From Acidobacteriota bacterium (GTDB lineage Bacteria; Zixibacteria; MSB-5A5; GN15; FEB-12): a stretch of 64,000 nt of DNA. The DNA is taken from contig DATKXK010000011.1 of the NCBI GenBank assembly GCA_035529075.1, forward strand, positions 64,295-128,294, given 5' to 3'. Below are positions 11,073 through 34,905 of the stretch, piece by piece; position 1 is the stretch's first letter, and each line of letters starts with the position of its first letter. The notes below the pieces were generated by a model, which saw nothing but the letters and a program-made list of their open reading frames with translations, had not been told where the DNA came from and did not search any database. A program made the position numbers and the translations under genes.

Positions 11073-11130
11073 GGCTCACACGATACGTTTTAAGTTGTGT
11101 TTTGAGAACCGGTTGCCCTTCTTTGACGCT

Positions 11131-11790: not shown

Positions 11791-12138
11791 ATAACTTCGC
11801 GCCACCGGTCTCCATAATCTGCAATCGATCCGTCAAGTCTTCTCTCTTCCGCCGGATCGATCAACCCGGCGGGGCACGCACTCACCGACGAACCGATATC
11901 CTGCTCTGATGCGAGCTTCAGTGCGTTCAAGCTGGCGGATGATGCGGGACCGTGACGAGGTAATGGGCGGGTCGGAGTTCCCTGCGCAGGGGGCGTTTTC
12001 GGTTGATTTATCGGGTCTTACGGTATATATATGACCTCTGAGAAACCGTCGGCAAGTGTTCAACAGGGGTCGGCAAGGTAAGTGTCCGGTCCGTCGGCAT
12101 ACCCGCCGGACGGGCCTGCGCAGGAGGGCGGTGCAGTC

Positions 12139-13092: not shown

Positions 13093-13128
13093 GTCGGCCC
13101 GTCGCACCGTTCGCCTCGAGGCCACAGG

Positions 13129-13503
13129 ATGATTTTCGGCATCGGCATAGACGACGTGGACGTGGAAAGACTCAGGCGGCGTCTCGGTGATACCGGCGGT
13201 CTCAAGGAGAGAGTGTTCACGCCGCGGGAGATTGAGTACTGCGAGTCCAGGCGAAGCAGCGCGCAGAACTTCGCGGCGCGCTTTGCCGCCAAAGAGGCGT
13301 TCATGAAGGCAGTCGGCACCGGCTGGCGGGACGGGTTGAAGTTTACCGACGTTGAGGTGGTTAACAACGAGAAAGGGAAGCCTGAACTTGTTCTTCACGG
13401 TGTGGCGAAACGTCTTGTCGACGAGAGCGGCATCACCAACGTCCAGGTATCCCTGTCACATATAAGGGATGTTGCCAGTGCCGTTGTCGCACTGGAGAAG
13501 TAA
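13129..13503 (+). CDS. acpS: Holo-[acyl-carrier-protein] synthase (4'-phosphopantetheinyl transferase)
   Basis: MIFGIGIDDVDVERL, FAAKEAFMKA, SLSH; 124 aa. Confidence 0.9.
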   Translation: MIFGIGIDDVDVERLRRRLGDTGGLKERVFTPREIEYCESRRSSAQNFAARFAAKEAFMKAVGTGWRDGLKFTDVEVVNNEKGKPELVLHGVAKRLVDESGITNVQVSLSHIRDVASAVVALEK

Positions 13504-13517
13504 AGGGAAAATGGAGA

Positions 13518-15224
13518 ATGACTAACATCGGGTCCTACGCCGAACGAGTCAAAAACTTCGATTGGTCAATTTCCGAGAAAGAGCTGGCGTTTAAGGACGG
13601 AAACGTCATCAACATCGGCTGGTACTGCTCCGACCGGATCTGCCAGTTGGGCATGGCGGACAAGCCGGCCCTGCTCTGGGAGAACGCGGCGGGACGGGAG
13701 AAGCGTTATACCTACGACGACGTCAGGCTGACCACCAACACCATCGGCGCGTTTCTCAGGGGCCTGGGGATCGGCGACGGGGACAGGGTGTGTCTTTTCA
13801 TGGACAAAATCCCCGAGCTGTACCTCGGGTTTCTGGGGGTGCTCAAGATCGGGGCCATCGCCCAGCCGCTCTTCTCGGCCTTCGGTGACGAGGCGTTGCG
13901 CATCCGGCTCAGTGACGCCGGGACCGCGGCGATCATCACCCAGCGCAAGCACGTCGCCAAGGTCCGGAAGATGCTCGACCAGGTGCCCCATCTCAGGCAC
14001 GTTATTCTTGTCGATTACGACGGGCGCAAGCCGCTTCGGGATCGGGAGGTTGCCTTTTCCCTGGAACAGGCCGAGCCCGTGCAGGAGTTGGAGATCTTCC
14101 CTACCAAGGCGGAGTCACCGTCCGTGCTTCACTATACGTCCGGAACGACCGGGCAGCCCAAAGGCGTCAAGCACGTTCACTATGCGCTGATCGCCCAGTA
14201 CCTGTCCACCAAGTGGGTTCTGGACCTGCAGCCGGACGACGTATACTGGTGCACGGCCGACCCGGGCTGGGTGACGGGTACGTCCTACGGCATTATCGGT
14301 CCCTGGAGCCTGGGCGTCACGCAGTGCGTCCTGGATGCGGGTTTCTCGGCGGAGGCCTGGTACCGCTTCATTGAAAAGCACAAGGTCACGGTCTGGTATT
14401 CCGCGCCGACGGCCATTCGCTCGCTCATGAAGGCGGGCGATGACCTGGTGCGGAAGTTTGACCTTTCCTCGCTGCGGCACCTGGCCAGCGTAGGCGAGCC
14501 GCTCAACGCGGAGGCGGTGGTCTGGTCGAAGAACGTGTATGGGCATCCCTTTCTCGATACGTACTGGCAGACCGAAACCGGTTCGATCATGCTTACGAAC
14601 TTCCCCGGCATGGAGATCAAGCCCGGTTCCATGGGTAAGGCTTTTCCGGGCATAACGGCAACCGTTCTGGACACCAAAACCTACGAGCCGATCACGGAGC
14701 CGGGCCGGGTCGGGCTGATCGCTTTCAAACCGGGCTGGCCGTCGATGATGCGGGCGTACTGGAACAACGAGGCCACGTACCAGGCCAAGTTCAGAAACGG
14801 CTGGTACCTTTCCGGTGACCGTTCGAGCATCGACAAGGACGGGTACTTCTGGTTTACGGGGCGTGACGACGACGTCATCAATACCGCCGGTCACCTGGTG
14901 AGTCCGTTCGAGGTGGAGTCGGCTCTGCTGGAACATGAGGCGGTCGCGGAGTCCGCGGTGGTGGCCAAGCCCGATGAAGTAAACATGGAAGTCGTGAAGG
15001 CGTTCGTGACGCTCAAGCCGGGGTTTGACGCCGGTGCCGACCTCGAGTTGAACATCATGAACTTCATTCGCAAGAAGCTCTCCCCGCTGGCCATGCCCCA
15101 GGAAATCGAGTACGTTGATTCGCTGCCCAAGACAAGGAGCGGCAAGATCATGCGGCGGCTGCTGCACGCGCGGGAGTGGGGCGAAGAGATCGGTGACATC
15201 TCCACGCTCGAGGATGACGAGTAG
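13518..15224 (+). CDS. Adenylate-forming acyl/acetyl ligase, Bacillus AcsA-like
   Basis: YTSGTTGQPKG, WCTADPGWVTG, YWQTETGS, PKTRSGKIMRR; collinear with the 570-aa short acetyl-CoA synthetases. Confidence 0.85.
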   Translation: MTNIGSYAERVKNFDWSISEKELAFKDGNVINIGWYCSDRICQLGMADKPALLWENAAGREKRYTYDDVRLTTNTIGAFLRGLGIGDGDRVCLFMDKIPELYLGFLGVLKIGAIAQPLFSAFGDEALRIRLSDAGTAAIITQRKHVAKVRKMLDQVPHLRHVILVDYDGRKPLRDREVAFSLEQAEPVQELEIFPTKAESPSVLHYTSGTTGQPKGVKHVHYALIAQYLSTKWVLDLQPDDVYWCTADPGWVTGTSYGIIGPWSLGVTQCVLDAGFSAEAWYRFIEKHKVTVWYSAPTAIRSLMKAGDDLVRKFDLSSLRHLASVGEPLNAEAVVWSKNVYGHPFLDTYWQTETGSIMLTNFPGMEIKPGSMGKAFPGITATVLDTKTYEPITEPGRVGLIAFKPGWPSMMRAYWNNEATYQAKFRNGWYLSGDRSSIDKDGYFWFTGRDDDVINTAGHLVSPFEVESALLEHEAVAESAVVAKPDEVNMEVVKAFVTLKPGFDAGADLELNIMNFIRKKLSPLAMPQEIEYVDSLPKTRSGKIMRRLLHAREWGEEIGDISTLEDDE

Positions 15225-15254
15225 ACGACGGATAGAAGTGTATAGGAGACGGTT

Positions 15255-15500
15255 ATGGAAGACGCGAAGGACGTGGTCCTCAATTACATCATCGAGGAGT
15301 ATCTTGAAGAAGAGGATGACGAGATAACCTACGACACGCCGCTTATTTCCGGTGGCATCGTCGATTCCTTCTCCATGGTTTCCCTCAAGCGGTTCCTGGA
15401 GAATAAGTACCAGATAAGCATTCCCGACGACAAGGCCACGCCGGAGGCGTTTGACACCGTCAACAGCATCGTGGCGCTGGTGAAATCCTTCCTCGGATAG
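15255..15500 (+). CDS. Stand-alone acyl/peptidyl carrier protein
   Basis: 81 aa, acidic, phosphopantetheine-site-like GGIVDSFSMVSL. Confidence 0.8.
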   Translation: MEDAKDVVLNYIIEEYLEEEDDEITYDTPLISGGIVDSFSMVSLKRFLENKYQISIPDDKATPEAFDTVNSIVALVKSFLG

Positions 15501-15622
15501 GCGTGCGGACTGCCGGCTCGCAGTCAGGCGGACCGCGCCGAGTTTGGAATCCGGTCGGCGCCCGAGCTGTGGGACCCGAGGGCCGGGGCGAAGAGACCGA
15601 GTGTTGCATGAGGAGTTAAACA

Positions 15623-16870
15623 ATGGGTTACAGTGACAAAGTCAGGGCAATATACCAGGAACAGATCAAGGAAATTCAGGACGCCGGGCTGTTCAAGCAG
15701 GAACGGTTCATCCATTCCTCCCAGGCGGCGGACATCGAGGTCGAATTCCCCATCGGCTCGTCGTTGAAAAAAGTCATCAACATGTGTGCCAACAACTACC
15801 TGGGGCTTTCCAGCCACCCGGAGGTCATCAAGGCGGCGCACGACGGGCTGGAGACGCGCGGCTACGGCATGTCTTCCGTCCGGTTCATCTGCGGCACGCA
15901 GGACATTCACCATGAACTCGAGCGGAAAGTGAGCGAGTTCCTGGGCACGGAAGATACCATCCTGTTTCCCTCCTGCATGGACGCCAACGCCGGCGTGTTC
16001 GAGGCCATCCTCGGCAGCGACGACGTTATGATCTCGGATCGTCTCGTGCACGCCTCGATCATCGACGGGATGCGGCTGTGCAGTGCCGTGCACGACACCT
16101 TCAAGCACTCCAACATGCAGCACCTGGAATCAAAATTGCAACTCCACGCCGACAAGCGATTCAAGGTGGTCATTACCGACGGCGTGTTCTCCATGGACGG
16201 CGACACGGCCAAACTCGACGAGATCGTCGAGCTGTGCGAGAAGTACGACGCCATGGTGTTCGTGGATGACTCCCACGCATCGGGTTTCATCGGCCGGACC
16301 GGCAGGGGCACTCACGAAAAATGTGGCGTCATGGGCAAAATCGACATCATCACCACAACCTTCGGTAAAGCCCTCGGCGGTGCCTCGGGGGGCTGCGTCT
16401 CCGGGCGTCGCGAACTGGTGGAACTGTGCCGCCAGAAGGCGCGGCCCTACCTGTTTTCCAACACCATCGCCCCGGTGGTTGTCTCGGGCGTGCTCAAAGT
16501 GCTCGATATCCTCTCCCGGAGCACCGAGCGGCGCGACAAGCTGGAAGCCAACACGGCGTACTGGCGCAAAGGCCTGGCCGAGGCCGGCTTCGTTCTCAAG
16601 GAGGGCGACACGCCCATCGTCCCTGTCATGCTGTTCAACGCCAAACTCTCGCAGGATTTCTCCCAGGACCTGTACAACGAGGGAATCTATGCCATGGGTT
16701 TCTTCTTCCCCGTGGTTCCCCAGGGCCAGGCGAGAATACGAACGCAGATTTCAGCCGCCCACGAAACACATCACCTCGACAAAGCACTCGAGGCGTTCAT
16801 CAAAGTCGGCAGGAAATACGACATCCTCGGCAAGACGAAGCAGGAGATCATCGAGAAATACGGAATGTAG
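15623..16870 (+). CDS. kbl: 2-amino-3-ketobutyrate CoA ligase (glycine C-acetyltransferase), alpha-oxoamine synthase family
   Basis: CANNYLGLS, VRFICGTQ, DDSHASGF, TFGKALGG (PLP Lys), FFFPVVPQGQARIRTQ. Confidence 0.92.
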   Translation: MGYSDKVRAIYQEQIKEIQDAGLFKQERFIHSSQAADIEVEFPIGSSLKKVINMCANNYLGLSSHPEVIKAAHDGLETRGYGMSSVRFICGTQDIHHELERKVSEFLGTEDTILFPSCMDANAGVFEAILGSDDVMISDRLVHASIIDGMRLCSAVHDTFKHSNMQHLESKLQLHADKRFKVVITDGVFSMDGDTAKLDEIVELCEKYDAMVFVDDSHASGFIGRTGRGTHEKCGVMGKIDIITTTFGKALGGASGGCVSGRRELVELCRQKARPYLFSNTIAPVVVSGVLKVLDILSRSTERRDKLEANTAYWRKGLAEAGFVLKEGDTPIVPVMLFNAKLSQDFSQDLYNEGIYAMGFFFPVVPQGQARIRTQISAAHETHHLDKALEAFIKVGRKYDILGKTKQEIIEKYGM

Positions 16871-16919
16871 ACCGGCGAGTTGTTAGGCTGGGGCCCCTAA
16901 TCCTGAATAGGTGGTAGTA

Positions 16920-17651
16920 ATGGACAGCCCGTACGAGAACTATAACGCGGTTATCCCGCGTTTAGAGGCTAGCTTCTGGCTCACCGTTGGAGCCATCGGG
17001 GCTGCTCACGAAGCAAGAGCGGAGGAGGCCGCGGAGTTGGAACGCAAACTTGATCCGGCTGCGGAGTTGCAGCGCAAACTAGATCCGGCTGTTGAGGAAG
17101 AGGATTTGAGACAGCGGGTTGCGCTACTGTCGAGAACACTCCTTGTATACGGCGTGGTAATCCTGGAAGCAATGGTGAAGGACTATGCACGTTATCTTGT
17201 ATTCAACAAGCGCCAGCCCGCCACCTGTCGAAAAATGCAGGACAGCATGCTTCCGGTGGAACCCACTTTTTCCGACAAAATGAAGGATGCGTCCGCTCTC
17301 AAGCATCAGCAATGGCAGAAGAAACTAATAGGGTGGATAAAGCAGGTTGGCCAACAAGTTGGCGGTGATCAGGGACGGGACTCGCGCTTTCTCGCTGTCA
17401 GGGAGGCCATTATCAAGCGATGCATGGACTTTAGTCACTGGACTATCGTGTACAAATGCTGCATTATCCGGAACCTTGAGGTCCATAATAATGGGCTTAT
17501 GAACGAAAGGAATCACAAGTGCGCGCCTATTTGTGATATAGGTCAAAAGCCCAGTTGGGACTGGGAACTGGTCAGAGACCTGTTCACGGCGCTGGATCTC
17601 TTGAACGTTCATCTCAGTGAGACAGACGTTATACAAACGGGCAGTATATGA
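16920..17651 (+). CDS. Hypothetical protein with an Rx4H (HEPN-like) motif and a tandem 10-aa repeat
   Basis: AGGTGG RBS before the ATG at 16920. Motif IIRNLEVHNNG. The stop overlaps the SDR start (ATGA). Visibly lower GC: lines hand-counted at about 47-55%. Confidence 0.6.
   Translation: MDSPYENYNAVIPRLEASFWLTVGAIGAAHEARAEEAAELERKLDPAAELQRKLDPAVEEEDLRQRVALLSRTLLVYGVVILEAMVKDYARYLVFNKRQPATCRKMQDSMLPVEPTFSDKMKDASALKHQQWQKKLIGWIKQVGQQVGGDQGRDSRFLAVREAIIKRCMDFSHWTIVYKCCIIRNLEVHNNGLMNERNHKCAPICDIGQKPSWDWELVRDLFTALDLLNVHLSETDVIQTGSI
17031..17090. repeat. 2 x 30-bp in-frame tandem repeat inside the 16920 gene
   Basis: gcggagttggaacgcaaacttgatccggct / gcggagttgcagcgcaaactagatccggct (27/30), encoding AELERKLDPA / AELQRKLDPA. 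Confidence 0.9.
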
Positions 17652-18379
17652 GATCACTCAAAGACAAGGTTGTCGTCATCACCGGGGCCTCGCGCGGTAT
17701 CGGTGCCGCCATCGCACGGGTCATGGCCGGCCAGGAGGCCCAGCTGGTTCTGTGCGGGCGGAACAAGAAGAACCTCCAGAACGTGGCCTCATCGCTCAAC
17801 CTCTCGCGCGGCAACTTCGTGACCGTCACCGCCGACGTCTCCAAAGCATCGGGCATGGCCCGGATAGTCAGGACGGCGTATGACAAGTTCGGCCGGGTGG
17901 ACGTTTTCGTCAACAACGCCGGGGTGGGTATCGGCAAGCTGTTCATCAGGACCACGGAGAAAGAGTTCGATACCGTTATCAATACCAACCTGAAGTCGGT
18001 CTTTTACTGTTTCAAGGAGCTTCTGCCGCGCCTTCAGAAACAGGGCGGGGGCCAGATCATCAACGTTTCCAGCATGGCGGCCAAGCAGGGGACGCCCGGC
18101 CTGTCGGTCTACTCCGCTTCCAAGGCGGCGGTGAACGTGCTCAGCGAGGCGGTGGCCGGCGAGGTACGCAACGAGAACATCAAGATTTGCGTCCTGGCGC
18201 CGGCCTCGGTCGAAACCGGGTTCATGTCCAATTTGGCCCCGCGTGCCCGGGCTTCCAGCAAGGCGGCTCGCAAGCTCGCGGTGGAGGAAGTAGCCGACGC
18301 GGTTCTGTTTCTTGCCCGGCAGAACGAAAACGCGTGGGTATCGCTGGCCGAGATCCGGCCACTGTTCGTCAGAAAGTAA
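17648..18379 (+). CDS. Short-chain dehydrogenase/reductase (classical SDR)
   Basis: TGASRGIG cofactor motif, NNAG, YSASKAAV catalytic motif. Confidence 0.9.
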   Translation: MRSLKDKVVVITGASRGIGAAIARVMAGQEAQLVLCGRNKKNLQNVASSLNLSRGNFVTVTADVSKASGMARIVRTAYDKFGRVDVFVNNAGVGIGKLFIRTTEKEFDTVINTNLKSVFYCFKELLPRLQKQGGGQIINVSSMAAKQGTPGLSVYSASKAAVNVLSEAVAGEVRNENIKICVLAPASVETGFMSNLAPRARASSKAARKLAVEEVADAVLFLARQNENAWVSLAEIRPLFVRK

Positions 18380-20948: not shown

Positions 20949-21881
20949 TTATTGGAGACTCTCGCTCCATTGCCGCATGTTCGCCTGATCGTGTTCGGCG
21001 CGATACCCTACCGCACCGATAAGCCTGAGGCTCTTCAGTCCCGCCGCCACCGGGCCGTACTTGGGGTGCTCGAATACAGAACCGTAACCCTCATCGAACT
21101 CAAACCCCACAGCCGGTTCTGACGGCCAGCCTGACCGAGCCACAGACTCCATCAGCGACAGATACTTTGTGCCGCCGCGATCAGACGCCAGAAAGAGCAG
21201 CAGCGTGTCGCCGTCCCGCACATAGCTCGATGTGAACACCTCGTCCAGGCCGGCGATCTCAAGGAAACTCGCGGGATAGTATTTATCCGAGGGAATGATC
21301 CGGTCTGCCTCGGGGAACAGGGCAAACGCCTCCGGCACCCAACCGGAATCGCCGATCAGTGTCGAAATCGTGACCGCCAGCAGACGCATGGCGTCGGCGG
21401 CCGCTTCGCGTTCATCTTCGGCCGTCAGCGAAACAACGCATTCTCTCTGCGTGAAGTGCATGGCGTTGCCCCGGACGTATCCTTCGGCGCCGAGCCGGAA
21501 GGTGGTGATGCCGTCCGGCCTTGACGCGGCATAAAGCCCGTACGCATCGTTGCTGGTTGCGAACTGCGCGATCTGAGCCGATATCTCGATGTCGCTCACC
21601 ACATAATTTCTGGTGGAACGACCGACCAGGCCGAAGGCGAGGTACCGGGCTGCCGGTTCGCCGGGCATCTCGTGCGCCTCGGCCCGGAGAACCGTGACTG
21701 CCGAATCGGTCGGCCGAATCACCGAACTGCTGTCGGGAAGGAATCGTGCGGCCACAAAGGGAACATCGGAAGCGTCGGCCACGGATGGTTCCCGCGTGCT
21801 GTCAGCATCTTTCCTGCCGCACGAGGCGGCACACAACGTCGCTGCGAGCACGGCTGTCATGATGCAGAGCTTGCGGAACAC
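20949..21881 (-). CDS. Lipoprotein, unknown function (last gene of the exosortase operon)
   Basis: Lipobox LCAASC after a hydrophobic signal; starts 6 nt after the UbiA gene stop. Confidence 0.65.
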   Translation of the reverse strand: MFRKLCIMTAVLAATLCAASCGRKDADSTREPSVADASDVPFVAARFLPDSSSVIRPTDSAVTVLRAEAHEMPGEPAARYLAFGLVGRSTRNYVVSDIEISAQIAQFATSNDAYGLYAASRPDGITTFRLGAEGYVRGNAMHFTQRECVVSLTAEDEREAAADAMRLLAVTISTLIGDSGWVPEAFALFPEADRIIPSDKYYPASFLEIAGLDEVFTSSYVRDGDTLLLFLASDRGGTKYLSLMESVARSGWPSEPAVGFEFDEGYGSVFEHPKYGPVAAGLKSLRLIGAVGYRAEHDQANMRQWSESLQ

Positions 21882-21887
21882 GGCGGC

Positions 21888-22769
21888 CTACAGGTAATAC
21901 AGTATAAGGATTGCGGTCAACAGCCAGAGGATTACGGTCACCAGTATCGGCCTGTCACTTATCAGGACCTGCGTCGGCGAGCCGCCCCTCTCTTCTTTGT
22001 GGATCAGGTACAGGTAGCGAAAAACCCCGTAGACCACGAACGGGATCGTCAGGTACAGGTTCTCCGTGCCCAGTTTTGTCGACACTTCAGTCGAAAACGA
22101 GTAGAGCATGTACATGACGACAACGGAAGCGGTGGTCACGCCGATGCATTGATCCAGGAGGTAGGGTGAGTATCGGCTGAGAATCCTGCGGTGCGCCACG
22201 GCACCGTCTTCGAGCAGAAGGAGTTCGTGGCGGCGCTTGCCGAAGGCCAGAAAGAGCGCCAGGAGCAGCGTGTTGATCAGGAGCCACTTGGATGCCGGCA
22301 CGTCGACGGCCACCGCTCCGGCGTAGGCGCGCACCACGAAGCCCAACGCCACGGCCATGACGTCAACGATAACGACGTTTTTCAGCGCCAGCGAATAAAG
22401 CAGGTTCAGGCCGAGGAACACCAGCGCGACGACAAAGAAGTGCCCCCCGAGGAACCACCACGCTCCGACGAGGCCGACAGCTACCAGCAGGACGATCATC
22501 ACCACCGCCTGAGGAGGGGCGACGGCGCCTGAAGCCAGCGGGCGCTCTTTTTTCAACGGATGCTGCCGGTCCTGTTGCCGGTCGATCAGGTCGTTGAAGG
22601 TGTAAACGGCGGACGACAGGAGGCAGAAGATCGCGGTGGCGATCAGGGCCAGTTCGGCCGACCTGGTGTGCCCGGCCTCTCCGGCAAAGACCAGTGCCGC
22701 CAGCACCACGCCGTTTTTCAACCACTGGGCGGGCCTGGCGAGCATGATCAGGTTTTTGAGCATATGCAA
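21888..22769 (-). CDS. UbiA-family prenyltransferase, decaprenyl-phosphate phosphoribosyltransferase-like
   Basis: ARPAQWLKN, NDLIDRQQDRQHPLKKERPLASG (NDxxD motif), about 8 TM segments. Confidence 0.85.
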   Translation of the reverse strand: MHMLKNLIMLARPAQWLKNGVVLAALVFAGEAGHTRSAELALIATAIFCLLSSAVYTFNDLIDRQQDRQHPLKKERPLASGAVAPPQAVVMIVLLVAVGLVGAWWFLGGHFFVVALVFLGLNLLYSLALKNVVIVDVMAVALGFVVRAYAGAVAVDVPASKWLLINTLLLALFLAFGKRRHELLLLEDGAVAHRRILSRYSPYLLDQCIGVTTASVVVMYMLYSFSTEVSTKLGTENLYLTIPFVVYGVFRYLYLIHKEERGGSPTQVLISDRPILVTVILWLLTAILILYYL

Positions 22770-22802
22770 AGATATCAGTCGGCCGGGGCCCGGCCAAGTT
22801 TT

Positions 22803-23447
22803 TTAACCGGCGAACGGCAGTGCTCGTTCGAGGTCGAGATAAAACGTCTGAAGGTACCTGACGGCGCGGTCCGCCGTGTTGTCTATGGTTTCGTCGCTGC
22901 CTATAGGCAGATTCACGCGAACAAAGGCTACGTCCGTCGGACGCAGGAGCAGCGAGTTGACCATCAGGTTCCACTTGAGCGCAAACTCACTCCGGATCGT
23001 GCCGCTGCGCGTTTCAAACCAGTATAGCATGAGTTGTTTCTGCTCGCGGTCGCGTATTATCAGGCGGTTGACCGTCTTGTGGCCCCCGTCCGGGAGGGGC
23101 AGCCGGTACGGTTCCAGCCGTTCGATCTTCCAGCCGCTGCCCGGCAGGCAGTGTCTGGGTGAATGAATCTGGCTGCCGTATTTCTGCGATTGGAAATACC
23201 CGACGAACATCCAGTAGGCGTCACCCTCCGGTGAAACGTACAGCCGCAGGGTGGTGGTGTCGGCCTGCAGGATATCGTACGAGTAGTCGGCGAAACGGCG
23301 TTCCTGGCCCGTGTAGCCGTCGCGGGCGTACGGTATCTCGTCGAAGTGCGGCGATCCTCCCGGGGGCCTGTCGGCGTATCGCAGGTACCAGGCAAACGCC
23401 CCCCCCGCTATGATCAGGATCGAGGCGATCAGGACGTACCGTCTCAT
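22803..23447 (-). CDS. epsI: EpsI-family exosortase-associated protein
   Basis: N-terminal TM, HSPRHCLPGSGW motif. The ATG at 23447 overlaps the exosortase stop (ATGA). The track ORF extends spuriously to 24176. Confidence 0.85.
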   Translation of the reverse strand: MRRYVLIASILIIAGGAFAWYLRYADRPPGGSPHFDEIPYARDGYTGQERRFADYSYDILQADTTTLRLYVSPEGDAYWMFVGYFQSQKYGSQIHSPRHCLPGSGWKIERLEPYRLPLPDGGHKTVNRLIIRDREQKQLMLYWFETRSGTIRSEFALKWNLMVNSLLLRPTDVAFVRVNLPIGSDETIDNTADRAVRYLQTFYLDLERALPFAG

Positions 23448-24286
23448 TTGAATACCCGCCTCACCACCGCTCCTGCGACAAACAGGCAGATGAATGAAAA
23501 CACAAACACGGACAACCCCAGCAGGGAGTGCAGCGGTTCGGCGGTCACCTCGATGGAAATCGCCGAGACAAGCAGAGCCGTGACGAAAACGCGGAAGACG
23601 TTGGCCGCGACCGCGATGGGCACCGTGCTGACAAAAACGATGGCCTTGGCGGCGAGGCGACGTTGCGTCAGGTAGGCATACAGGGCGCCCAGGGCCAGCA
23701 GGGAAACGAGCGACCGTATCCCGGAGCAGGCGTCGGCCACCTCCAGCGAATTGCCCGCCAGGTGAATTATGTTCCCCTGGCGCACGACTCCGAGGCCGAC
23801 GACCTTCAGCAGTACGACCGTGATTTTCGTGGCCAGGGTTTGCATAGGGAAGGCGACGGCGTAGTACAACACGTACGGGATCGGAACCATGAACAGCAGG
23901 AAGAAAAACGCGAACCAGCTTTTTCTGATCACCTCGCGTCCGTACAGGCAATAAACCAGGCCGAACAGGCTGAGGATGAACGAGACGCGCACCGTGAAGT
24001 ACTCGGCGGCCCCGGTGCCGACAAGCAGCAGCAGCAGGCCGGCTACAAGGAGAACCAGTCCGCCCGCGGCAGGACTCGTCCCGGTGCTGCCCAGCCGGTG
24101 GCGGTTCTTCCACAGGAGATAGCCGGAAACAACGGGCACCAGAAAGCCGTGGGAGTAATTGGCGTCCTGATACCACTCCGTCACGAGATCATACAGGACC
24201 GGAAGGTAGGCGGCCGCCAACAGGAGGAACGGGGCGGTCCGCAACCAGGGGGAGTAGCGGCTTTGTACCGCGGTAACTTCTGACAT
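23444..24286 (-). CDS. Exosortase (EpsH/Xrt family)
   Basis: DANYSHGFLVP N-terminal motif, catalytic-Cys motif ADACSGIRSL, polytopic, 280 aa. Confidence 0.88.
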   Translation of the reverse strand: MSEVTAVQSRYSPWLRTAPFLLLAAAYLPVLYDLVTEWYQDANYSHGFLVPVVSGYLLWKNRHRLGSTGTSPAAGGLVLLVAGLLLLLVGTGAAEYFTVRVSFILSLFGLVYCLYGREVIRKSWFAFFFLLFMVPIPYVLYYAVAFPMQTLATKITVVLLKVVGLGVVRQGNIIHLAGNSLEVADACSGIRSLVSLLALGALYAYLTQRRLAAKAIVFVSTVPIAVAANVFRVFVTALLVSAISIEVTAEPLHSLLGLSVFVFSFICLFVAGAVVRRVFK

Positions 24287-24461
24287 GGCAAGGTCCGGTT
24301 TAATATCCCTGCGTTTGCGAAAACTGCTCTAAGGGCCTAGTCGACACAAGGCCGGGCCGCTTTAGCCGACGGTCAGGCGGCGCGGGCACGACGCGATTCG
24401 CCGCAAAAAAAACGGTGGGCTTCAGGGCCCGTTTTGCCTACATTTCGGCGGCGGTTCTTTT

Positions 24462-25406
24462 ATGATCAAGAAACGACGTCAGAAAGGCAAACAGAATCAT
24501 TACGCCCTGTTGCTCAATCGCCGGGCGGGCGGCTTCGAGCGACGGGTGGTCGAGCGGCTGACGGCGGCGATTCGCCGGGCCGGCGCCCACTATACGGTTC
24601 TCGAACCGGAGTCGGCTACGGATCTGCTGGCCATGGCACAACAGGCCGCCGGCGTGAGACGACGCCATCGCTTTCTGTCGCAGAACATCAGTCGACGGGG
24701 GCCCATCACCGCCCTGGTCGCTTGCGGTGGTGACGGGACGTTCAATCTCGTGGCCCGGGCGGCCATGGATGCAGACCTGCCGGTGGGTGTGCTGCCGCTC
24801 GGCAGCCTGAACAATATCGCGCGTTCGCTGTGCGGATCGGTCGATCCCGGCCGGGCCATCCAGAGCATTCTCTCAGGTAACTACCGGAAGTTTGACGCGG
24901 GTCGCGCCGCGACCCAGCCCTTCTTCGGCTCCGTCGGCCTCGGTTTCACGGCCGAGCTGACCCGCCTGCTAAAGGAGAAGAAACTGCCCCGTTTCGGTAT
25001 CGGCTGGGCGCAGCTGGCCAATCGCGCCGCCGCCAGCGTCTCCGTGACACCCATTATCGTCAAGGTGGACAGCTTCCGCTTTGAGGTCAGCCCGCTCATG
25101 CTCAACGTCAACCTGCTGTCGTACTCGGCGGGCCTGCCGTTCTCACCGGCCTCGGTGCCGGATGACGGTCATGCGGAGGTAATCTTTGACAGGGGAGAAG
25201 CCGTCGGAGGGTTCGGCGCCTTCGCCCGCCTCATCCATAACGGAAAGTATCTGTACGGAGATGACGTCCGAATGTACCGCGCCACTACCATCACGTGCCA
25301 GCCATCCCGGGGACGGAAACTGTACCTCGACGGTGAACTGATCGACCTGCCGACCAACGTGCTGGAGGTTCAGGTGAAGCCTCAGCAGGTGAAGGTCTTT
25401 TGCTGA
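24462..25406 (+). CDS. Diacylglycerol/lipid kinase family protein (YegS/BmrU-like)
   Basis: ACGGDGTFN catalytic-domain motif, about 310 aa. Confidence 0.85.
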   Translation: MIKKRRQKGKQNHYALLLNRRAGGFERRVVERLTAAIRRAGAHYTVLEPESATDLLAMAQQAAGVRRRHRFLSQNISRRGPITALVACGGDGTFNLVARAAMDADLPVGVLPLGSLNNIARSLCGSVDPGRAIQSILSGNYRKFDAGRAATQPFFGSVGLGFTAELTRLLKEKKLPRFGIGWAQLANRAAASVSVTPIIVKVDSFRFEVSPLMLNVNLLSYSAGLPFSPASVPDDGHAEVIFDRGEAVGGFGAFARLIHNGKYLYGDDVRMYRATTITCQPSRGRKLYLDGELIDLPTNVLEVQVKPQQVKVFC

Positions 25407-25407: not shown

Positions 25408-25989
25408 ATGAAGCGCGCCGCTTACGTGCTTCTTCTCGCCGGTCTCCTTGGTCCCCCGTTGCATGCCGATACTACCGACGTGACCGCACCCGCACTGTCC
25501 GACACGGTGATCTTTCAGCCGGTACGGGATACCAGCCGCGCGGTCCAGGTGGCCAACCCGTCTGACTTCGAAAAGCACCTGACGCAGAACCCGACGGCAG
25601 CGCTGTTCAAGTCCATGCTGGTTCCGGGCCTGGGGCAGATCGGCAACCGCCGCTGGGTCAAGGCGGCGGTGATCATCGGCCTGGAGACGTGGTTTATCGG
25701 TTCAGCCGTTCATTACGGCCGGCAGGCCGCCGACTTCCGTGACCAGTGGGAAAACGCAACCGGCCTTCAAACCCGGCGGATTCTCTACGATCTTTACGAG
25801 GACCGCCGCGACGAGCGCAACAAGTTCACGTGGTTTGCGGGTGTCACGATTTTCGTGTCCATGTTTGACGCTTACGTGGACGCCCATCTTTCGGGATCGC
25901 CCGGGGACCGGCGTAACGATCAGGTGGACTGGGACGTGGCGCCGGACGGCCGGGGCGGGGTCCGTGCGCTCGTGACTTATCCGTTCTAA
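25408..25989 (+). CDS. Membrane protein, DUF5683-like (family name from memory)
   Basis: Signal peptide, LVPGLGQIGNRRWVKA, FAGVTIFVSMFDAYVDAHL; starts 2 nt after the kinase stop. Confidence 0.6.
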   Translation: MKRAAYVLLLAGLLGPPLHADTTDVTAPALSDTVIFQPVRDTSRAVQVANPSDFEKHLTQNPTAALFKSMLVPGLGQIGNRRWVKAAVIIGLETWFIGSAVHYGRQAADFRDQWENATGLQTRRILYDLYEDRRDERNKFTWFAGVTIFVSMFDAYVDAHLSGSPGDRRNDQVDWDVAPDGRGGVRALVTYPF

Positions 25990-27431
25990 TCGCTCAGTAT
26001 GAAGTCTGTGACGTCCAGTTCGTAACGGGACGGATCTATCTGTCGGATAATCTTCCGGGCGGCGTGTTCTTCCTGTGACAGGTCCACCCACAGCGGCGTG
26101 TCAAGCAGACCCTGCCGGTCGCCCACCACCTTGACGTACGGGCGCGCCCTGTCCACCTCGTTGTTTGCCAGCACCAGCGCGATCTCATCGGTGTTCAGCA
26201 GGACGAGGGAACCGGCCGGGTAGATGCCGATAATGTCGTTGAACAGCTTCAGGAGGAAGGGGTCAAACTTGATTTTCATCTGGTAGCGCAGTTTCTTGAA
26301 TACGACGTCCGGGCTCAGCGCCTTCTTCAGATACACCCGACCGGAGGTAAGGGCGTCAAAGGAATCAACTACCGAGATGATCCTGGAGAAGAGGTTGGGC
26401 GGCCGTTTCTGGTAGTGCAGGACCGGGTAGCCGGTGAAATCGTTGTTGATGTGGTGTTCAAACGTGCCCCGCGCGGCCCGGGCCGTGTGGGCGTCGAGTT
26501 TCAGGTTGCGCAGCACCGTCTTGGCGCCGAGGATCGGGTGGTACTGCATCTGGATCCAATCGTCCTCGTCAAACGCTTCCGGTTTGCTGATCAGGTCCTT
26601 GGGTAGCCTGACCTTGCCGATGTCGTGGAAAAGAGCCGTGAATCCGAGCTGTGACAGGCGCGAGCGGTCCAGTCCCAGCTTGATGCCGAGCGTGAGAGCG
26701 TATACGGAGACGTTCGTCGAGTGCGCGTACGTGTAGTCGTCGAAGTCCTTGATGGCCGTGAGTTCGAGCAGCGATGATTCGTCCCGGGTGATGTGATCGA
26801 TCAGCGAGTGCACGACGCGCTTGGTCTTGGAGATATTGATATCGCGGTCTTCCATGGTGTTGACAACCACTTCCTGGACCACCGCCACGGCCCGGAAGAA
26901 CGTTTTGCGTGCCATGCTGCGAAAACGGCGCCGTATCTCCTCGGCCAGCAGCGGCTCCTCGTCGTCGATGTCTTTCGCCGAAAGCAGTTCAACGCACTCC
27001 AGCCCGTTCGACTTCAGCGTGGCCGACAGGGATTCCAGGTTCCCGGTCGTCGGCTTGACCGTCGCCATGTAAGTGAAAAAGCCGGCCACCTCGTCCTTGG
27101 TGATCTCCTGGAAAAAGGTGGCACCGCCTATGCCCAGCATTTTCCATTCGGCGACTACGCCGGCGGCTCCCGACGGCCCGGCATCGTCAAACCTGACCAG
27201 CCGGTTGTTTACGAAATACCGGCTGGCCACCCGTTTCACTGTCACGTCGCCTTCGGCTTCCGACAGGGATGCCAGCAGGCCATAGAAGTTGTCGAGCTGG
27301 TTGCGAAAAGCGGCGTTGTTCTCATCGATAATGCGGGCCGTTTTGTACAGCACGAAGAAGGCGTTTACCAGCCTTTCCTCGGCCTGGCCGGCCAGCAGGC
27401 GTCCGGCGATCTGACCGACGGCCTCAGTCAT
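25986..27431 (-). CDS. HD-GYP domain c-di-GMP phosphodiesterase-like protein
   Basis: HSTNV, LFHDIGK, HH.NNDFTGYP. Confidence 0.85.
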   Translation of the reverse strand: MTEAVGQIAGRLLAGQAEERLVNAFFVLYKTARIIDENNAAFRNQLDNFYGLLASLSEAEGDVTVKRVASRYFVNNRLVRFDDAGPSGAAGVVAEWKMLGIGGATFFQEITKDEVAGFFTYMATVKPTTGNLESLSATLKSNGLECVELLSAKDIDDEEPLLAEEIRRRFRSMARKTFFRAVAVVQEVVVNTMEDRDINISKTKRVVHSLIDHITRDESSLLELTAIKDFDDYTYAHSTNVSVYALTLGIKLGLDRSRLSQLGFTALFHDIGKVRLPKDLISKPEAFDEDDWIQMQYHPILGAKTVLRNLKLDAHTARAARGTFEHHINNDFTGYPVLHYQKRPPNLFSRIISVVDSFDALTSGRVYLKKALSPDVVFKKLRYQMKIKFDPFLLKLFNDIIGIYPAGSLVLLNTDEIALVLANNEVDRARPYVKVVGDRQGLLDTPLWVDLSQEEHAARKIIRQIDPSRYELDVTDFILSD

Positions 27432-29286
27432 CTTTTCCTCCGTAGATGAGTTCCCGGCGTCGCTTTAACGCCTGTACGGCCTGCCGTTTGATATCCGGTC
27501 GCCAGCTCGACGAGAGCTTCAGCAGGGCGCGCTCGCACCGCTCGCTTCGATTGTGGCTGAGGGCCTCAAAAGCCGCGGTCCGATAGGCCCTAAGGTTCCT
27601 GTCTCGTAACGGGTTGGGTTTCGTTATCAGGTGCATGAGATATTCCACCGCCCGGTCGCCCCCGAGCACGGAGTACGCATTGAGCACCCTCTGCTGGTCG
27701 GGACCCTCCAGTTCGCCGAACGAATCGTCGTTCAGTACGTCGGTGATGGCAACGAAAGCCGCCGGTCCGCGCCGGGCCACGATAGAGTTGACCGCCTCCT
27801 TGCGAACCTCCGGATCCTTGTCACGGGCGCCACGCTTGAGCAGTTCCAGGGCCTGCTCGTGGGTGCAGTCCAGCAGCGACGACACCAGCGCCAAGCGTAC
27901 TCGCCTGTCTTCGTGGTCGACGACGTTCTTCACCTGGTTAAGCGCCGGGCCGTCGCCGATCCGGCAAAGGATGATGACGGAATTGCGCACGACGAACCAC
28001 CGTTTGTCGAACAACCCCTTGGAGACGAGCTGCAGATTTTCGCGGCCTCGCTCAGCCAGGAAGTCGCACAGTGATTCTCGGTGATTCCGCTGTGTCAGTT
28101 CACCCAGCAGGTCAGTCAGACCGGCCAGGGCCTCCCAGTCGAAGAGGTTGAGATACCGGCGCAGGTCGGCCGCAGCGATATCAGGGAGTTGATTGAGCGC
28201 CTCGCACAGGATTTTCAGGCGGTCTCGACTGCCCGCCGTGATGCGGGCATCTTTCAGCCGCTCGGACCACAGGGGCTTGTCCGGACGGATGCGTTCTTCA
28301 AGTGATCGGAAGTAGCCCAGCACCCGCCCCGCGTACACGAGTCTTCCCGCTCGAATGAACTCGCTCATGACCTTCTCGGAGACCGTCACCGCCTCGTCGA
28401 AGCTGGCCATGTCTCCTTCCTGGTGCAGTAACTCCCTGAGCAATTCGGTGGTTGATTCGTATATGTCAAAATCGGCGTCGTCCCGGGCGATTTGCTGCAC
28501 CTGCAACTCTTCTTCCTCGGAAAGCCTCGACTCGTCCTCAAGTATCAGGGTTGTATCGGGAGTTGCACGCTGGTCCGACGGATCGAGATCGGCGAATCCC
28601 ATGGCATTGGCCGCCTCGACGGTCCTCAAGCCCTCACGGTCGCCCACTTGCTCGTCAAAGACCGTCCGCCCGGGACCGGTCGGAGGTCCGCCGTCGGCGT
28701 CCTCTTGCTCGGCCGGCCTGAAAATGGCCTCGTAGTTCTCGGTTCTCTCGCTCGCCATCTGCGAACCCTCGATACCGCCGGCCTCTCGATTGCTGAACAG
28801 TTCCTGGACTCTGAAGTCACCATCGTATTCGGACAGCGCCAGGTCCTCAACGGTCGTAAACGTAATCCCGGTCAGGCCGGCTTCCCAAAGCATGTTGACC
28901 AGGTCGCGGCTCCTGTTGGGCAGGTTGACGTAGTCTTTGATCACGTTCAGGAACAGGTGAATCTGCGGGGTGTCAAGGCCTTCGCGGAACGTCAGATCGG
29001 TGATACCGGTTTCGAAGAACAGGCCGGCCAGGCTCTCCTGCTTGGAGCGGTCGATGAACGCCGTCTCACCGTCGAGGGCCAGGCGGTCACGCTCTACGGT
29101 GATCCGTATACTGCCGCAGTCCTGGACCAGCGACTCGAGCTTCTCGGCAAACGTCCGTCGCATGCACTCGGGAAGCGGGTTCCCCTCCGGGTACATGGAG
29201 ACGACCTTGATCACTTTCAGGAGGTCTTTGAGGATCAGCCGGACGTCCTGAAGGCGCTGCTCTTCTGTTGCGACCGTCGTTGTCAT
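27424..29286 (-). CDS. HEAT-repeat protein, unknown function (start 29286 preferred over 29346)
   Basis: C-terminal HEAT-like repeats (DRRVRLALVSSL, DPEVRKEAVNSI). An 8-nt overlap with the HD-GYP start indicates an operon. Confidence 0.65.
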   Translation of the reverse strand: MTTTVATEEQRLQDVRLILKDLLKVIKVVSMYPEGNPLPECMRRTFAEKLESLVQDCGSIRITVERDRLALDGETAFIDRSKQESLAGLFFETGITDLTFREGLDTPQIHLFLNVIKDYVNLPNRSRDLVNMLWEAGLTGITFTTVEDLALSEYDGDFRVQELFSNREAGGIEGSQMASERTENYEAIFRPAEQEDADGGPPTGPGRTVFDEQVGDREGLRTVEAANAMGFADLDPSDQRATPDTTLILEDESRLSEEEELQVQQIARDDADFDIYESTTELLRELLHQEGDMASFDEAVTVSEKVMSEFIRAGRLVYAGRVLGYFRSLEERIRPDKPLWSERLKDARITAGSRDRLKILCEALNQLPDIAAADLRRYLNLFDWEALAGLTDLLGELTQRNHRESLCDFLAERGRENLQLVSKGLFDKRWFVVRNSVIILCRIGDGPALNQVKNVVDHEDRRVRLALVSSLLDCTHEQALELLKRGARDKDPEVRKEAVNSIVARRGPAAFVAITDVLNDDSFGELEGPDQQRVLNAYSVLGGDRAVEYLMHLITKPNPLRDRNLRAYRTAAFEALSHNRSERCERALLKLSSSWRPDIKRQAVQALKRRRELIYGGKDD

Positions 29287-29406
29287 ACTTCCAGCCTCTA
29301 AACAGCTTAGATCGGCAGGATGCCGCATCGTATTAACCGGGATCACGGCGAATGCAGAAACGGCCGGTCGCTCGCGACCGGCCGCCTGTGGAACGCGCGG
29401 GTTCCC

Positions 29407-30747
29407 TTAGAGCAGTTCGATTTTCTGGCGATGCCTGCGGACGTGTTTGGTGGCGTTGCGGGTGTCAAAGACGGCCCTGGCGTTATCCACGATCCACTGG
29501 TAGTCGTAGCCGCTGTGGTCGGTGACAACGACGACCAGATTGACTTTCTTGATCAGTTGAGCCGTCAGCCGGCTCGATTTCATGACGCCGTCGCGCCACG
29601 CAAAGTGCGGGACAAAAGGATCGTTGTAGTAGACCCGGCAGCCCTTGTCTTCGAGCAGCTTGATGACGTCCAGGGCCGGGGACTCGCGGATGTCCTTGAT
29701 GTCTCGCTTGTAGGCTACGCCGAGGATGAGCATGGCCGACTTGTTGAGCGCCCTGGCATGACGGCGGTTCATCATGGCACCGATCCGTTGGACCACCCAC
29801 TCGGGCATCTGGCTGTTGATGTCGCCGGCCAGCTCGATGAACCGGGCGTAGTAATTGAGCGACTTGAGCTTCCACGACAGGTAGTGCGGGTCGATCGGAA
29901 TGCAGTGGCCGCCCAGCCCCGGACCGGGGTAGAACGGCATGAAGCCGAACGGCTTGGTGGCGGCGGCGTCGATGATCTCCCACACGTCGATGCCCAGCCG
30001 ATTGCACATGACCGCCACCTCGTTGACGAGACCGATATTGACCGACCTGAACGTATTCTCCAGGAGTTTTACCATTTCCGCGGCCTGGGTCGACGAGACC
30101 GCGTGCACGTGCGGGATGGTCTTTTCATAGAAGGCCTTCGCGACCCGCGTGCAGTCGCGGGTGACGCCGCCGACTACGCGGGGAGTGTTACCGGTGGTGT
30201 ACTTCGCGTTCCCCGGGTCGACGCGTTCCGGTGAGAAAGCAAGGAAGAAATCGGCGCCGACCTTGAACCCCTTCCTGTCAATGAGCGGCAGGATCAGATC
30301 CTCGGTCGTGCCCGGATAGGTCGTGGACTCCAGTACCACGAGCGTTCCCTTCCGGATATACTTCTTTACCCAGTCCATGGCGGCCAGGATGAAGCTGACG
30401 TCGGGATCTTTGGTCTTGGACAGCGGGGTCGGAACACAGATGGAAATCGTATCCATCGTCGACAGCGCTTTCGGGTTGCCCGTGGCGAGAAAGCGTCCCG
30501 AGCGCACGGCCTCACGAACGCGTTCGTCGGGCACGTCGTCGATATCCGATTTCCCCGCGTTGAGTCGCTTGATTTTCTCGCTGCTGATGTCGAAGCCGGT
30601 CACTCGGAACCCGGCCTCGACCAGGGCCATCGACAGCGGCAGCCCCACGTAGCCCAGACCGATAACACCGGCCCTGGCTTTTCGATTCTTGATCTTCTCG
30701 AGCAGCGTATCAACAGCCCTGGGTTTCCTGTGGCGTGTTTCTGCCAT
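29407..30747 (-). CDS. Nucleotide-sugar (UDP-N-acetyl-hexosamine type) 6-dehydrogenase
   Basis: VIGLGYVGLPLS Rossmann motif, catalytic GGHCIP. The ATG at 30747 follows a GGGAGAGAAG RBS. Confidence 0.88.
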   Translation of the reverse strand: MAETRHRKPRAVDTLLEKIKNRKARAGVIGLGYVGLPLSMALVEAGFRVTGFDISSEKIKRLNAGKSDIDDVPDERVREAVRSGRFLATGNPKALSTMDTISICVPTPLSKTKDPDVSFILAAMDWVKKYIRKGTLVVLESTTYPGTTEDLILPLIDRKGFKVGADFFLAFSPERVDPGNAKYTTGNTPRVVGGVTRDCTRVAKAFYEKTIPHVHAVSSTQAAEMVKLLENTFRSVNIGLVNEVAVMCNRLGIDVWEIIDAAATKPFGFMPFYPGPGLGGHCIPIDPHYLSWKLKSLNYYARFIELAGDINSQMPEWVVQRIGAMMNRRHARALNKSAMLILGVAYKRDIKDIRESPALDVIKLLEDKGCRVYYNDPFVPHFAWRDGVMKSSRLTAQLIKKVNLVVVVTDHSGYDYQWIVDNARAVFDTRNATKHVRRHRQKIELL

Positions 30748-30772
30748 AAAACTTCTCTCCCGTGCGCGCCGA

Positions 30773-31741
30773 TTATGCTTTGCCGACCTTGCTCCGCCAG
30801 TACTCCAGCGTGTCACGCAACGTCGTTTTGAGTTTATATCGGATTTCAAAACCGACCGATTGAGCCGCCTTCCGGTTGCTGCCCCTCAGGACGGGGATTT
30901 CCGCCTTACGCAGCCGGGATTCGTCAACCTTGACGGTAACTTTGCCGGTCGAAAAAGACAACAGGGCATCCAGCATCTTCTGGATTGACACCGCCCTCCC
31001 GGAGCAGAGTTGGTATACCTCGCCCGGCCGGCCTTTGAGCGCGATCAGCCGATAGCCGCGGACTATGTCGCGGACGTCGGAGAAGTCTCTGCGCGCCGAG
31101 AGGTCCCCCACTTGCACCCGCGGTTTTTGCCTGCCCGCCTCGATCAGGGCCACCTGCCGGGCGAATGACGGGATGACAAACCGTTCCGTCTGTCGGGGCC
31201 CGCTGTGATTGAAGGAACGTGATATCACCGCCGGAAGCCTGTGCTGTCGGTAGTGGTATCGGACCGCATACTCGGCGGCAGCCTTGCTGATACCGTACGG
31301 CGAGATCGGGTTTAGAGGCTGATTCTCCGTAAGGGTCCGGTTCTTCGGAGAAAAGATGCCATAGCAATCGGCGGAACTTACGTACACAAACCTGTTGAGC
31401 CGATCGAGCTGTCCGGCCGCAGCGAGCATGTTCAGGGTGCCCCGAAAATTAACCTCGACAGTAAGCGCTTCCTGTTCGTAGGACCTGCCTACCGAAGCTA
31501 CCGCCGCCAGGTGAAAGACATACCCCGGTTTCAACTTCCGCAGCACCTTTTTGCACCTGTCACCATCGAGTATATCCAGGGGCACCAGCCGCAGGTCACT
31601 GCGGATGGCGGCGATATTGTCGGTAGGTTCGTCGTCGTAAATCGAGCCGGAAACGGTAAACCCGGAATTCAACAGTTCTTCGGCCAGGTATGAGCCGGCG
31701 AATCCGGCGATTCCGGTAATGAAGGCGTGCGGCTGGCTCAT
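30773..31741 (-). CDS. NAD-dependent epimerase/reductase, GDP-4-keto-6-deoxy-mannose reductase (Rmd)-like
   Basis: [19 protein letters not shown]; immediately downstream of gmd. Confidence 0.75.
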
Positions 31742-31743: not shown

Positions 31744-32712
<969 letters not shown>

Positions 32713-33891: not shown

Positions 33892-34091
33892 AAACACCGG
33901 TCGGCTCACCGTCCGGGCGAATGACCGCACAGGAAACGCTTTCATTATTCCGGTGATAAACGGCGATGAATCTGATCCTTCGGCGGAGCGGCGTTGCTCG
34001 GGTGGCGGGTCAGTTTGGAAGTTGATATGCTGTTTCTTGACAGGTCGATTATGTAATGAATGGGGGCTGCGGGCGCGTACCACGCTCAACC

Positions 34092-34781: not shown

Positions 34782-34788
34782 TCTGTAC

Positions 34789-34859: not shown

Positions 34860-34874
34860 ATGCACCACAAGTTA

Positions 34875-34901: not shown

Positions 34902-34905
34902 TCGT

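Follow-up and report, generated by a model that had tools for sequence, protein, structure and literature searches.

A Rv3806c-like UbiA-family gene recurs beside exosortase and EpsI in Zixibacteria-like bacteria

Introduction

Why should a protein-sorting enzyme be encoded next to an enzyme predicted to build a lipid-linked sugar? The question is raised by contig DATKXK010000011.1 of assembly GCA_035529075.1, of which 64,000 nucleotides (positions 64,295 to 128,294; hereafter the window) were analysed. Here four co-oriented minus-strand open reading frames (ORFs) form a compact block at 20949-24286, flanked on either side by plus-strand genes, and encode in order an exosortase (Xrt), EpsI, a UbiA-superfamily enzyme and a DUF6599 protein. 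To our knowledge, the acceptor of exosortases, and even whether exosortases attach their substrates at all, is unsettled. The compact pairing of exosortase and EpsI with one enzyme for a defined lipid-linked sugar offers a concrete candidate for a partner molecule. The locus is best explained as a lineage-specific variant of the exosortase/EpsI sorting system in Zixibacteria-like bacteria. Every component belongs to a known family; what is new is the combination, together with a type of exosortase for which there is no curated subtype. In the library of literature searched, there was no link of an exosortase with UbiA or a polyprenyl-phosphate enzyme and nothing on exosortases in Zixibacteria or on DUF6599; a paper on cyanoexosortase B describes a link with scytonemin and ebo, involving no UbiA-exosortase connection.

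Methods

The best 80 exosortase loci from species-representative genomes were collected, at 46-64% exosortase identity. Iterated hidden Markov models (HMMs) were run on every ORF of these loci, and the denominators given below are the loci with enough DNA. For an unbiased survey of the neighbourhood, all ORFs of the 80 loci were clustered and the recurrent clusters annotated. Family calls rest on the curated cut-offs of NCBIfam/TIGRFAM and Pfam.

The 80 loci come overwhelmingly from metagenome-assembled genomes (MAGs) of Zixibacteria, and the labelled sequences among the 120 closest exosortase homologs (54-66% identity) are chiefly Zixibacteria or GN15. Note that there is a conflict of labels, for an identical exosortase protein is recorded as Acidobacteriota in NCBI. 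Because the nearest homologs and the syntenic loci are mostly Zixibacteria, the window is treated as Zixibacteria-like. Many binned MAGs are labelled Ignavibacteriales, and one Deferrimicrobium.

Results

Is the arrangement peculiar to the window? EpsI follows Xrt in 66/75 loci, mostly with a 4-nt overlap, and UbiA comes after EpsI in 48/70, with a median gap of 37 nt. DUF6599 lies directly 3' of UbiA in 22/66 loci and within 5 kb in 26/56. The conserved core is Xrt-EpsI-UbiA, to which DUF6599 and a lipid-kinase/DUF5683 gene pair are frequent, variable additions. The first-pass annotation had proposed that the UbiA and lipoprotein genes belong with the exosortase; since synteny is found in other genomes, the objection that they might lack it falls away. 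On a neighbour-joining tree of the exosortases, the order Xrt-EpsI-UbiA spans five clade types and is found in several deep clades. DUF6599 and the kinase are each present in some cases and missing in others, extra genes occur, and losses are seen sporadically. The EUD clade keeps the Xrt-EpsI-UbiA adjacency though it has no kinase and different downstream genes. The downstream flank of the window (peroxiredoxin, isocitrate dehydrogenase, acyl-ligase/acyl carrier protein (ACP) cluster) is kept in just 2-9/80 loci. UbiA is the best conserved of the four proteins, with a median identity of 60%, compared with 55% for Xrt, 50% for EpsI and 32% for DUF6599. Its recurrence in many genomes of uncultured Zixibacteria-like bacteria makes the arrangement probably functional.

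What stands beside Xrt when UbiA does not? Among the loci with complete context, 31 of 45 have UbiA and 14 have none beside Xrt. In a sister clade that retains Xrt-EpsI, for the most part together with the kinase, and in a few loci scattered elsewhere on the tree, UbiA is lacking and EpsI is followed by GT2 or GT4 glycosyltransferases, sugar-nucleotide enzymes or a GNAT protein. The slot after EpsI is thus habitually given to enzymes that build glycans, of which UbiA would be one. The GNAT acyltransferase (about 191 aa) is directly after EpsI in four loci (L053:11458-12033, L068:10388-10963, L049:5679-6263 and L050:12016-12738).

The first-pass annotation described four tightly packed minus-strand genes, and all four ORFs were found where it placed them, with the quoted motifs all there. 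Its account of the spacing is also accurate. The ATG of EpsI sits in an ATGA that shares bases with the TGA stop of the exosortase (4-nt overlap); the gap between EpsI and UbiA is 33 nt for a TTG start of UbiA, or 39 nt for an ATG start; and 6 nt separate the UbiA stop from the GTG start of DUF6599. This spacing suggests that the four genes would be co-transcribed. A GC-rich hairpin in the EpsI-UbiA gap (Table 1) is not convincing as a minus-strand terminator, and no convincing internal terminator was found on the operon strand. The intergenic region upstream of Xrt is presumed to hold the promoters; it has no Rfam match, and no sigma-70 consensus was found in it. A search around the operon for riboswitches or other regulatory RNAs, sigma-70 promoters and terminators gave nothing convincing.

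The identities of exosortase and EpsI given by the first-pass annotation hold at the family level. The exosortase carries the motifs ANYSHGFLVP and ACSGIRS and scores 227.2 bits against PF09721 (cut-off 25.7), 191.4 bits against TIGR02602 (cut-off 105.55) and 65.9 bits against the exosortase/archaeosortase signature TIGR04178 (cut-off 23). When it is subtyped with HMMs, it does not reach the cut-off of the XrtA subtype TIGR03109 (196.8 bits against 208), and none of the other subtypes (XrtB to XrtZ, cyanoexosortases) attains its cut-off. It is thus a generic, XrtA-like exosortase outside every curated subtype. Residues Cys187, Arg191, Arg232 and His253 are invariant among 25 homologs; the catalytic roles of Cys and Arg derive from ArtA mutagenesis, as cited in PMC9263693. 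EpsI scores 105.4 bits against TIGR02914 (cut-off 42.8), and its best model match is the C-terminal domain of fused XrtD. Its HSPRHCLPGSGW motif is invariant among homologs. The EpsI assignment (TIGR02914/PF11984) has both the passing score and the gene position adjoining an exosortase.

What, then, does the UbiA enzyme make? It passes the cut-off of NF008977, the equivalog family of decaprenyl-phosphate phosphoribosyltransferase (275.1 bits; cut-off 234), and aligns over its full length (residues 5-284) to PDB 8J8J, which is Rv3806c of Mycobacterium tuberculosis (E=5e-36). According to the structure paper (PMC10994848), from which the residue roles are taken, Lys28 of Rv3806c contacts the 5'-phosphate of phosphoribosyl pyrophosphate, Asn73 and Asp77 the Mg2+, and Asp81, Tyr138 and Lys143 the pyrophosphate. 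The window enzyme has identical equivalents of these six out of eight mapped residues, and they are invariant, or conserved in 51, among 52 sequences (the window UbiA and 51 exosortase-linked homologs). The equivalent of Gln135 is Asn; at the Lys208 position, roughly half have Arg or Lys. The residues that bind phosphoribosyl pyrophosphate, for Mg2+, ribose, 5'-phosphate and pyrophosphate, are thus present. Very probably, then, we are dealing with a genuine polyprenyl-phosphate phosphoribosyltransferase that makes polyprenyl-phospho-ribose-5-phosphate, and the first-pass description of it as decaprenyl-phosphate phosphoribosyltransferase-like is borne out. Public gene calls choose the ATG start, which gives 21888-22763.

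Table 1. Coordinates of the Xrt-EpsI-UbiA-DUF6599 block and of neighbouring features in the window (TM, transmembrane)
Feature	Coordinates	Strand	Size	Remarks
DUF6599 lipoprotein, extracytoplasmic	20949-21881	-	310 aa	PF20244; GTG start; signal peptide and lipobox (AASC)
UbiA-superfamily, very probable polyprenyl-phosphate phosphoribosyltransferase (Rv3806c-like)	21888-22769	-	291-293 aa	TTG start; motif NDLIDRQQDRQHP
GC-rich hairpin GGCCGGGCCCCGGCC	22781-22795			In EpsI-UbiA gap; without T-run in operon direction
EpsI (DUF3485)	22803-23447	-	214 aa	One N-terminal TM segment, then periplasmic domain with HSPRHCLPGSGW
Exosortase (Xrt)	23444-24286	-	280 aa	TIGR02602, PF09721; about 8 TM segments from hydropathy scan
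Divergent intergenic region	24287-24461		175 nt	Between Xrt and lipid-kinase gene
DAGK_cat (YegS/BmrU-type) lipid kinase	24462-25406	+		PF00781; GGDG motif; divergent from operon
DUF5683 protein	25408-25989	+		PF18935; in 44 loci, always adjoining kinase
HD-GYP-type (HD_5) putative cyclic di-GMP (c-di-GMP) phosphodiesterase	25986-27431	-		PF13487, PF01966; in 33 loci
HEAT-repeat protein	27424-29346	-		PF13646; paired with HD-GYP gene; in 31 loci
NDP-sugar dehydrogenase	29407-30849	-		TIGR03026 428 bits (cut-off 189.8); recurs in 14 loci
NAD-dependent sugar epimerase/dehydratase	30773-31741	-		PF01370, PF16363
GDP-mannose 4,6-dehydratase	31744-32706	-		TIGR01472 434.9 bits (cut-off 415); family in 28 loci

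Which proteins would this exosortase sort? The first-pass annotation saw no ORF in the window ending in PEP, a TM segment and a basic tail, and a six-frame search of the window likewise found none. A further stretch of about 17 kb of the source contig (about 81 kb in total) and the surroundings of about 74 related loci also yielded no PEP-CTERM tail. PrsK, PrsR and PrsT were not found in the window either, and its only sigma-54 activator scores 256.5 against the PEP_resp_reg cut-off of 502.6. A separate clade of six loci has neither EpsI nor UbiA. Their exosortase gene precedes a polyprenyl glycosylphosphotransferase-like gene and PrsK (350.8; cut-off 300), the latter found in this clade only. 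PEP-CTERM genes passing TIGR02595 lie within 10 kb of 2/6 exosortases of this clade and of 0/74 others; by our arithmetic, the hypergeometric probability of such a split is about 0.005. This sister clade is the classical XrtA/PrsK/PEP-CTERM system. Two of its loci (L085:8347-18726 and L072:19447-20076), from the same phylum, carry PEP-CTERM proteins that end in PIPEPSTLALLGFGLLGLGGISRFRFRK.

Two further observations touch on surface proteins of the relatives. At L006:10509-11564, two genes past DUF6599, a 351-aa protein has a tail of VPSLTTWG, a TM helix and QRKKG; it resembles the IPTL-CTERM type, has no NCBIfam match and was seen at a single locus. Proteins with C-terminal sorting domains of type IX secretion are encoded in related genomes (L039:8059-9669 and L092:8172-11060), so related bacteria probably also use type IX secretion for surface proteins.

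The fourth gene of the block had been called a lipoprotein of unknown function. That it is a lipoprotein stands, given its lipobox; its family was missed, for it scores 83.3 bits against PF20244, DUF6599 (cut-off 27). Most of 33 homologs have a signal peptide with Cys at the lipobox position, and 25/33 fit the strict lipobox pattern. DUF6599 as a whole is large (4,650 cluster representatives at E <= 1e-3), and the tie to the operon concerns only the operon's own subfamily. Searches for its indexed homologs returned 2 and 5 proteins, and a metagenome scan with a narrow alignment gave 7 loci. Starting from DUF6599 in the reciprocal direction, 4/4 informative loci (>=33% identity), a small sample, have Xrt-EpsI-UbiA-DUF6599, and two distant homologs (24-29% identity) lack Xrt-EpsI-UbiA. 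These results give DUF6599 its first functional context. The idea that DUF6599 is a diverged EpsI was rejected (hhalign probability 1.4%). The structure model has a mean predicted local distance difference test score (pLDDT) of 58 and is reliable for residues 40-185 only. Its best Foldseek match in PDB has E=2e-3, and the TM-scores are 0.29-0.44. A fold assignment was rejected. The weak matches recur on extracytoplasmic ligand- or lipid-binding domains of lipoproteins and sensors (PknH sensor, TP0453, TiME, RseB), and may serve as a lead only.

The first-pass annotation was right about the four-gene block and missed two parts of its neighbourhood, namely the kinase/DUF5683 pair and the GDP- and NDP-sugar genes. 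The lipid kinase matches NF009604 and TIGR00147 below their cut-offs. Its linkage to Xrt is seen in 46 loci, a number that BLAST clustering puts at 55. It is divergent and immediately upstream in 35 loci, with a median spacing of 175 nt as in the window, and co-directional and downstream, closing an extended operon, in 7. That the kinase/DUF5683 linkage survives rearrangement argues for function. The extended operon is seen in 11 loci (L015:12340-16702, L040:12316-17587, L016, L021, L023, L024, L026, L027, L032, L037 and L042), with the order Xrt-EpsI-UbiA-DUF362-NapH/NapG-like polyferredoxin-DUF6599-DUF3108-like-kinase-DUF5683. Its redox module (DUF362, NapH/NapG-like) beside the lipid-linked ribose synthase could conceivably replace an epimerisation of the DprE1/E2 type.

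Discussion

How could a lipid-linked pentose serve a sorting system? Tentatively, we read UbiA as the source of a lipid-linked pentose, to be used as a donor on the surface-glycan or glycoprotein side of the system. This reading draws on the operon anatomy, the synteny, the conservation and identity of UbiA, the glycan genes that recur upstream or fill the slot of UbiA where it is missing, and the reciprocal search from DUF6599. UbiA would load ribose phosphate onto a membrane lipid carrier, and a flippase would move the lipid-linked pentose to the outer face of the membrane. Outside the cytoplasm, it would be the sugar donor for a surface glycan or for the glycosylation of sorted proteins. 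Xrt and EpsI would cleave the C-terminal sorting signals of proteins encoded elsewhere and deliver these proteins to the glycan layer. UbiA would then occupy the position held in related loci by a polyprenyl-phosphate glycosylphosphotransferase or other glycan enzymes, and DUF6599 would act as an accessory protein outside the cytoplasm, possibly by binding a ligand. Sugars on polyprenyl monophosphate serve periplasmic transferases as donors and do not carry polymers. For this reason the first-pass suggestion of a carrier for exopolysaccharide is less apt, and it is chemically imprecise (PMC11127046). In Gram-negative bacteria, Rv3806c-like enzymes are known as the source of lipid-linked pentofuranose donors for periplasmic glycosylation (PMC11127046), and the present loci extend the reach of these enzymes beyond the mycobacterial and three-component contexts.

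Several points weigh against the donor role. In the three-component pentofuranose glycosylation system of Kelly et al. 2024 (PMC11127046), a synthase with a phosphatase module works with a flippase and a GT-C transferase, and the candidate systems had all three components wherever examined. The window shares with that system a polyprenyl-phosphoribose synthase of the same family and a Gram-negative envelope; the HAD phosphatase module, the MATE/GtrA flippase and the GT-C transferase (GT136) are absent locally, and an exosortase/EpsI pair is there instead. A 5'-phosphatase (HAD/PAP2) is neither fused to UbiA nor recurrent within 10 kb of the 80 loci, no flippase (MATE, GtrA, SMR) or GT-C is among the recurrent neighbours in these loci, and the core block contains no glycosyltransferase. 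Neither about 81 kb of the source contig nor the surroundings of the related loci yielded a substrate with a sorting tail, so that PEP-CTERM sorting by this Xrt is unproven. Co-transcription is a prediction from gene spacing. Moreover, the evidence is comparative throughout and drawn from uncultured organisms of a single phylum, and part of the synteny could accordingly be inherited gene order.

Could the lipid-linked ribose instead be the acceptor itself? In such a scheme the thioester of Xrt/EpsI with the cleaved substrate would be resolved onto polyprenyl-phospho-ribose(-5-phosphate), giving a surface protein with a polyprenyl-phosphoribosyl anchor. The Xrt-EpsI-UbiA core contains no glycosyltransferase, phosphatase, flippase or GT-C, and this lack of glycan-transfer partners leaves Xrt as the sole polytopic enzyme locally able to use the UbiA product. 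UbiA is also conserved more than Xrt, and the lipid kinase remains linked in two arrangements. There is a precedent in archaea, where the juxtaposition of the sortase-family gene artA with pssA, for an enzyme of membrane-lipid headgroups, rightly predicted a lipid-anchoring pathway involving PssA/PssD (PMC7157517). However, the nucleophile proposed there is the amine of ethanolamine, whereas the headgroup here would be phosphoribose; the archaeal enzyme is a CDP-alcohol transferase and the present one a UbiA protein, of different families. Sortase-type anchoring, as characterised or proposed for the archaeosortase model and rhombosortase, uses an amine nucleophile (PMC7157517; Haft's preprint). 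Ribose-5-phosphate offers hydroxyls only, so the product would be a labile ester. Ordinary glycan enzymes replace UbiA in related loci, and about 30% of full-context loci have no UbiA beside Xrt-EpsI. Nothing shows the acceptor or anchor role that the first-pass annotation put forward, and since no amine nucleophile is evident, it is less likely than the donor role; we regard it as unlikely. Yet the present evidence does not separate donor from acceptor. If the acceptor role were true, polyprenyl-phospho-ribose(-5-phosphate) would be the long-sought acceptor of a bacterial exosortase. A fuller version, in which the DAGK-type kinase and DUF6599 service the lipid cycle and the polyprenyl-phosphoribosyl anchor is a new class, is about as unlikely or slightly more so.

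Might co-location mean nothing for mechanism? UbiA could serve a general envelope glycan, such as a side chain of lipopolysaccharide or capsule, and stand beside Xrt by inherited gene order. All the loci are from one lineage, the HD-GYP, HEAT and kinase neighbours are conserved nearly as often, and 14/45 complete-context loci do without UbiA beside Xrt. But the adjacency persists where both flanks are lost or rearranged, as the EUD clade illustrates. The gaps are short or overlapping, and the downstream flank turns over freely. We judge uncoupled co-location improbable.

Another possibility is that this exosortase type sorts substrates other than PEP-CTERM proteins, by an undescribed signal, and that UbiA, DUF6599 and the kinase belong to that pathway. 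The uneven split of PEP-CTERM genes between the classical exosortases (2/6) and the others (0/74) speaks for it, and so do the failure of the exosortase to reach any curated subtype and the lack of PrsK, PrsR and PrsT in the window. On the other hand, exosortase substrates are commonly scattered in genomes, and the search covered about 81 kb of the contig and the surroundings of the loci. The catalytic signature is intact and the score is close to XrtA, so that a different kind of substrate seems doubtful.

How does the locus, read tentatively as a donor-supplied sorting system, compare with known ones? With the XrtA/EpsI PEP-CTERM system (Haft 2006, 2012; TIGR03109, TIGR02914) it shares the 8-TM exosortase, the Cys/Arg signature and a separate EpsI with a 4-nt overlap, as well as sugar-precursor genes and a putative HD-GYP-type c-di-GMP phosphodiesterase gene nearby. 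It differs in that the exosortase is below the XrtA cut-off, no PrsK/PrsR/PrsT or PEP-CTERM gene was found nearby, and UbiA sits where the classical clade has the polyprenyl glycosylphosphotransferase-like gene. In mycobacteria, DPPR synthase is followed in the pathway by a phosphatase, by the epimerase DprE1/E2 and by arabinosyltransferases of the GT-C type. The window enzyme shares full-length homology and the six residue equivalents with the M. tuberculosis DPPR synthase Rv3806c, and differs from it at the Gln135 and Lys208 positions; unlike the decaprenyl-phospho-arabinose pathway, the conserved neighbourhood has no Rv3807c-like phosphatase, DprE1/DprE2 or arabinosyltransferase.

Other genes of the window

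Upstream of the operon and co-oriented with it, the HD-GYP and sugar-nucleotide genes (Table 1) are the setting of a regulated surface glycan. On the other side, a plus-strand gene at 6181-7818 encodes a Wzy_C O-antigen ligase-like membrane protein and is followed by a small ORF; it is not conserved, being present in 1/80 loci. Next come tetratricopeptide-repeat and sigma-54 activator genes (8360-10639, plus strand), which recall PEP-CTERM accessories, score below the cut-offs and are not conserved near the exosortase.

At 11071-11790 on the plus strand there is a lone homolog of bacterial microcompartment shell proteins (BMC domain), with no obvious microcompartment enzymes beside it. The plus-strand cluster at 12082-18379 encodes an epimerase-family reductase, a holo-ACP synthase, an acetate-CoA-ligase-like enzyme, an ACP resembling that of ornithine lipids, a Kbl/BioF-type acyltransferase, a 246-aa protein and a short-chain dehydrogenase/reductase. 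We considered whether this acyl-ligase/ACP/aminotransferase cluster is exosortase-A-associated or sphingolipid-like, and rejected the idea, as no exosortase-associated model matched any of the annotated genes and conservation of the operon does not extend to the cluster. The ligase and Kbl-like genes pass the cut-offs of acetate-CoA ligase and glycine C-acetyltransferase; a pathway for amino-lipids or something similar may be encoded here. Finally, the GC content, about 0.60 on average in the window, dips to 0.52 at 34000-36000, adjoining a tRNA gene (34710-34781) and a 231-aa ORF without annotation (34906-35601). A small element may have integrated here.

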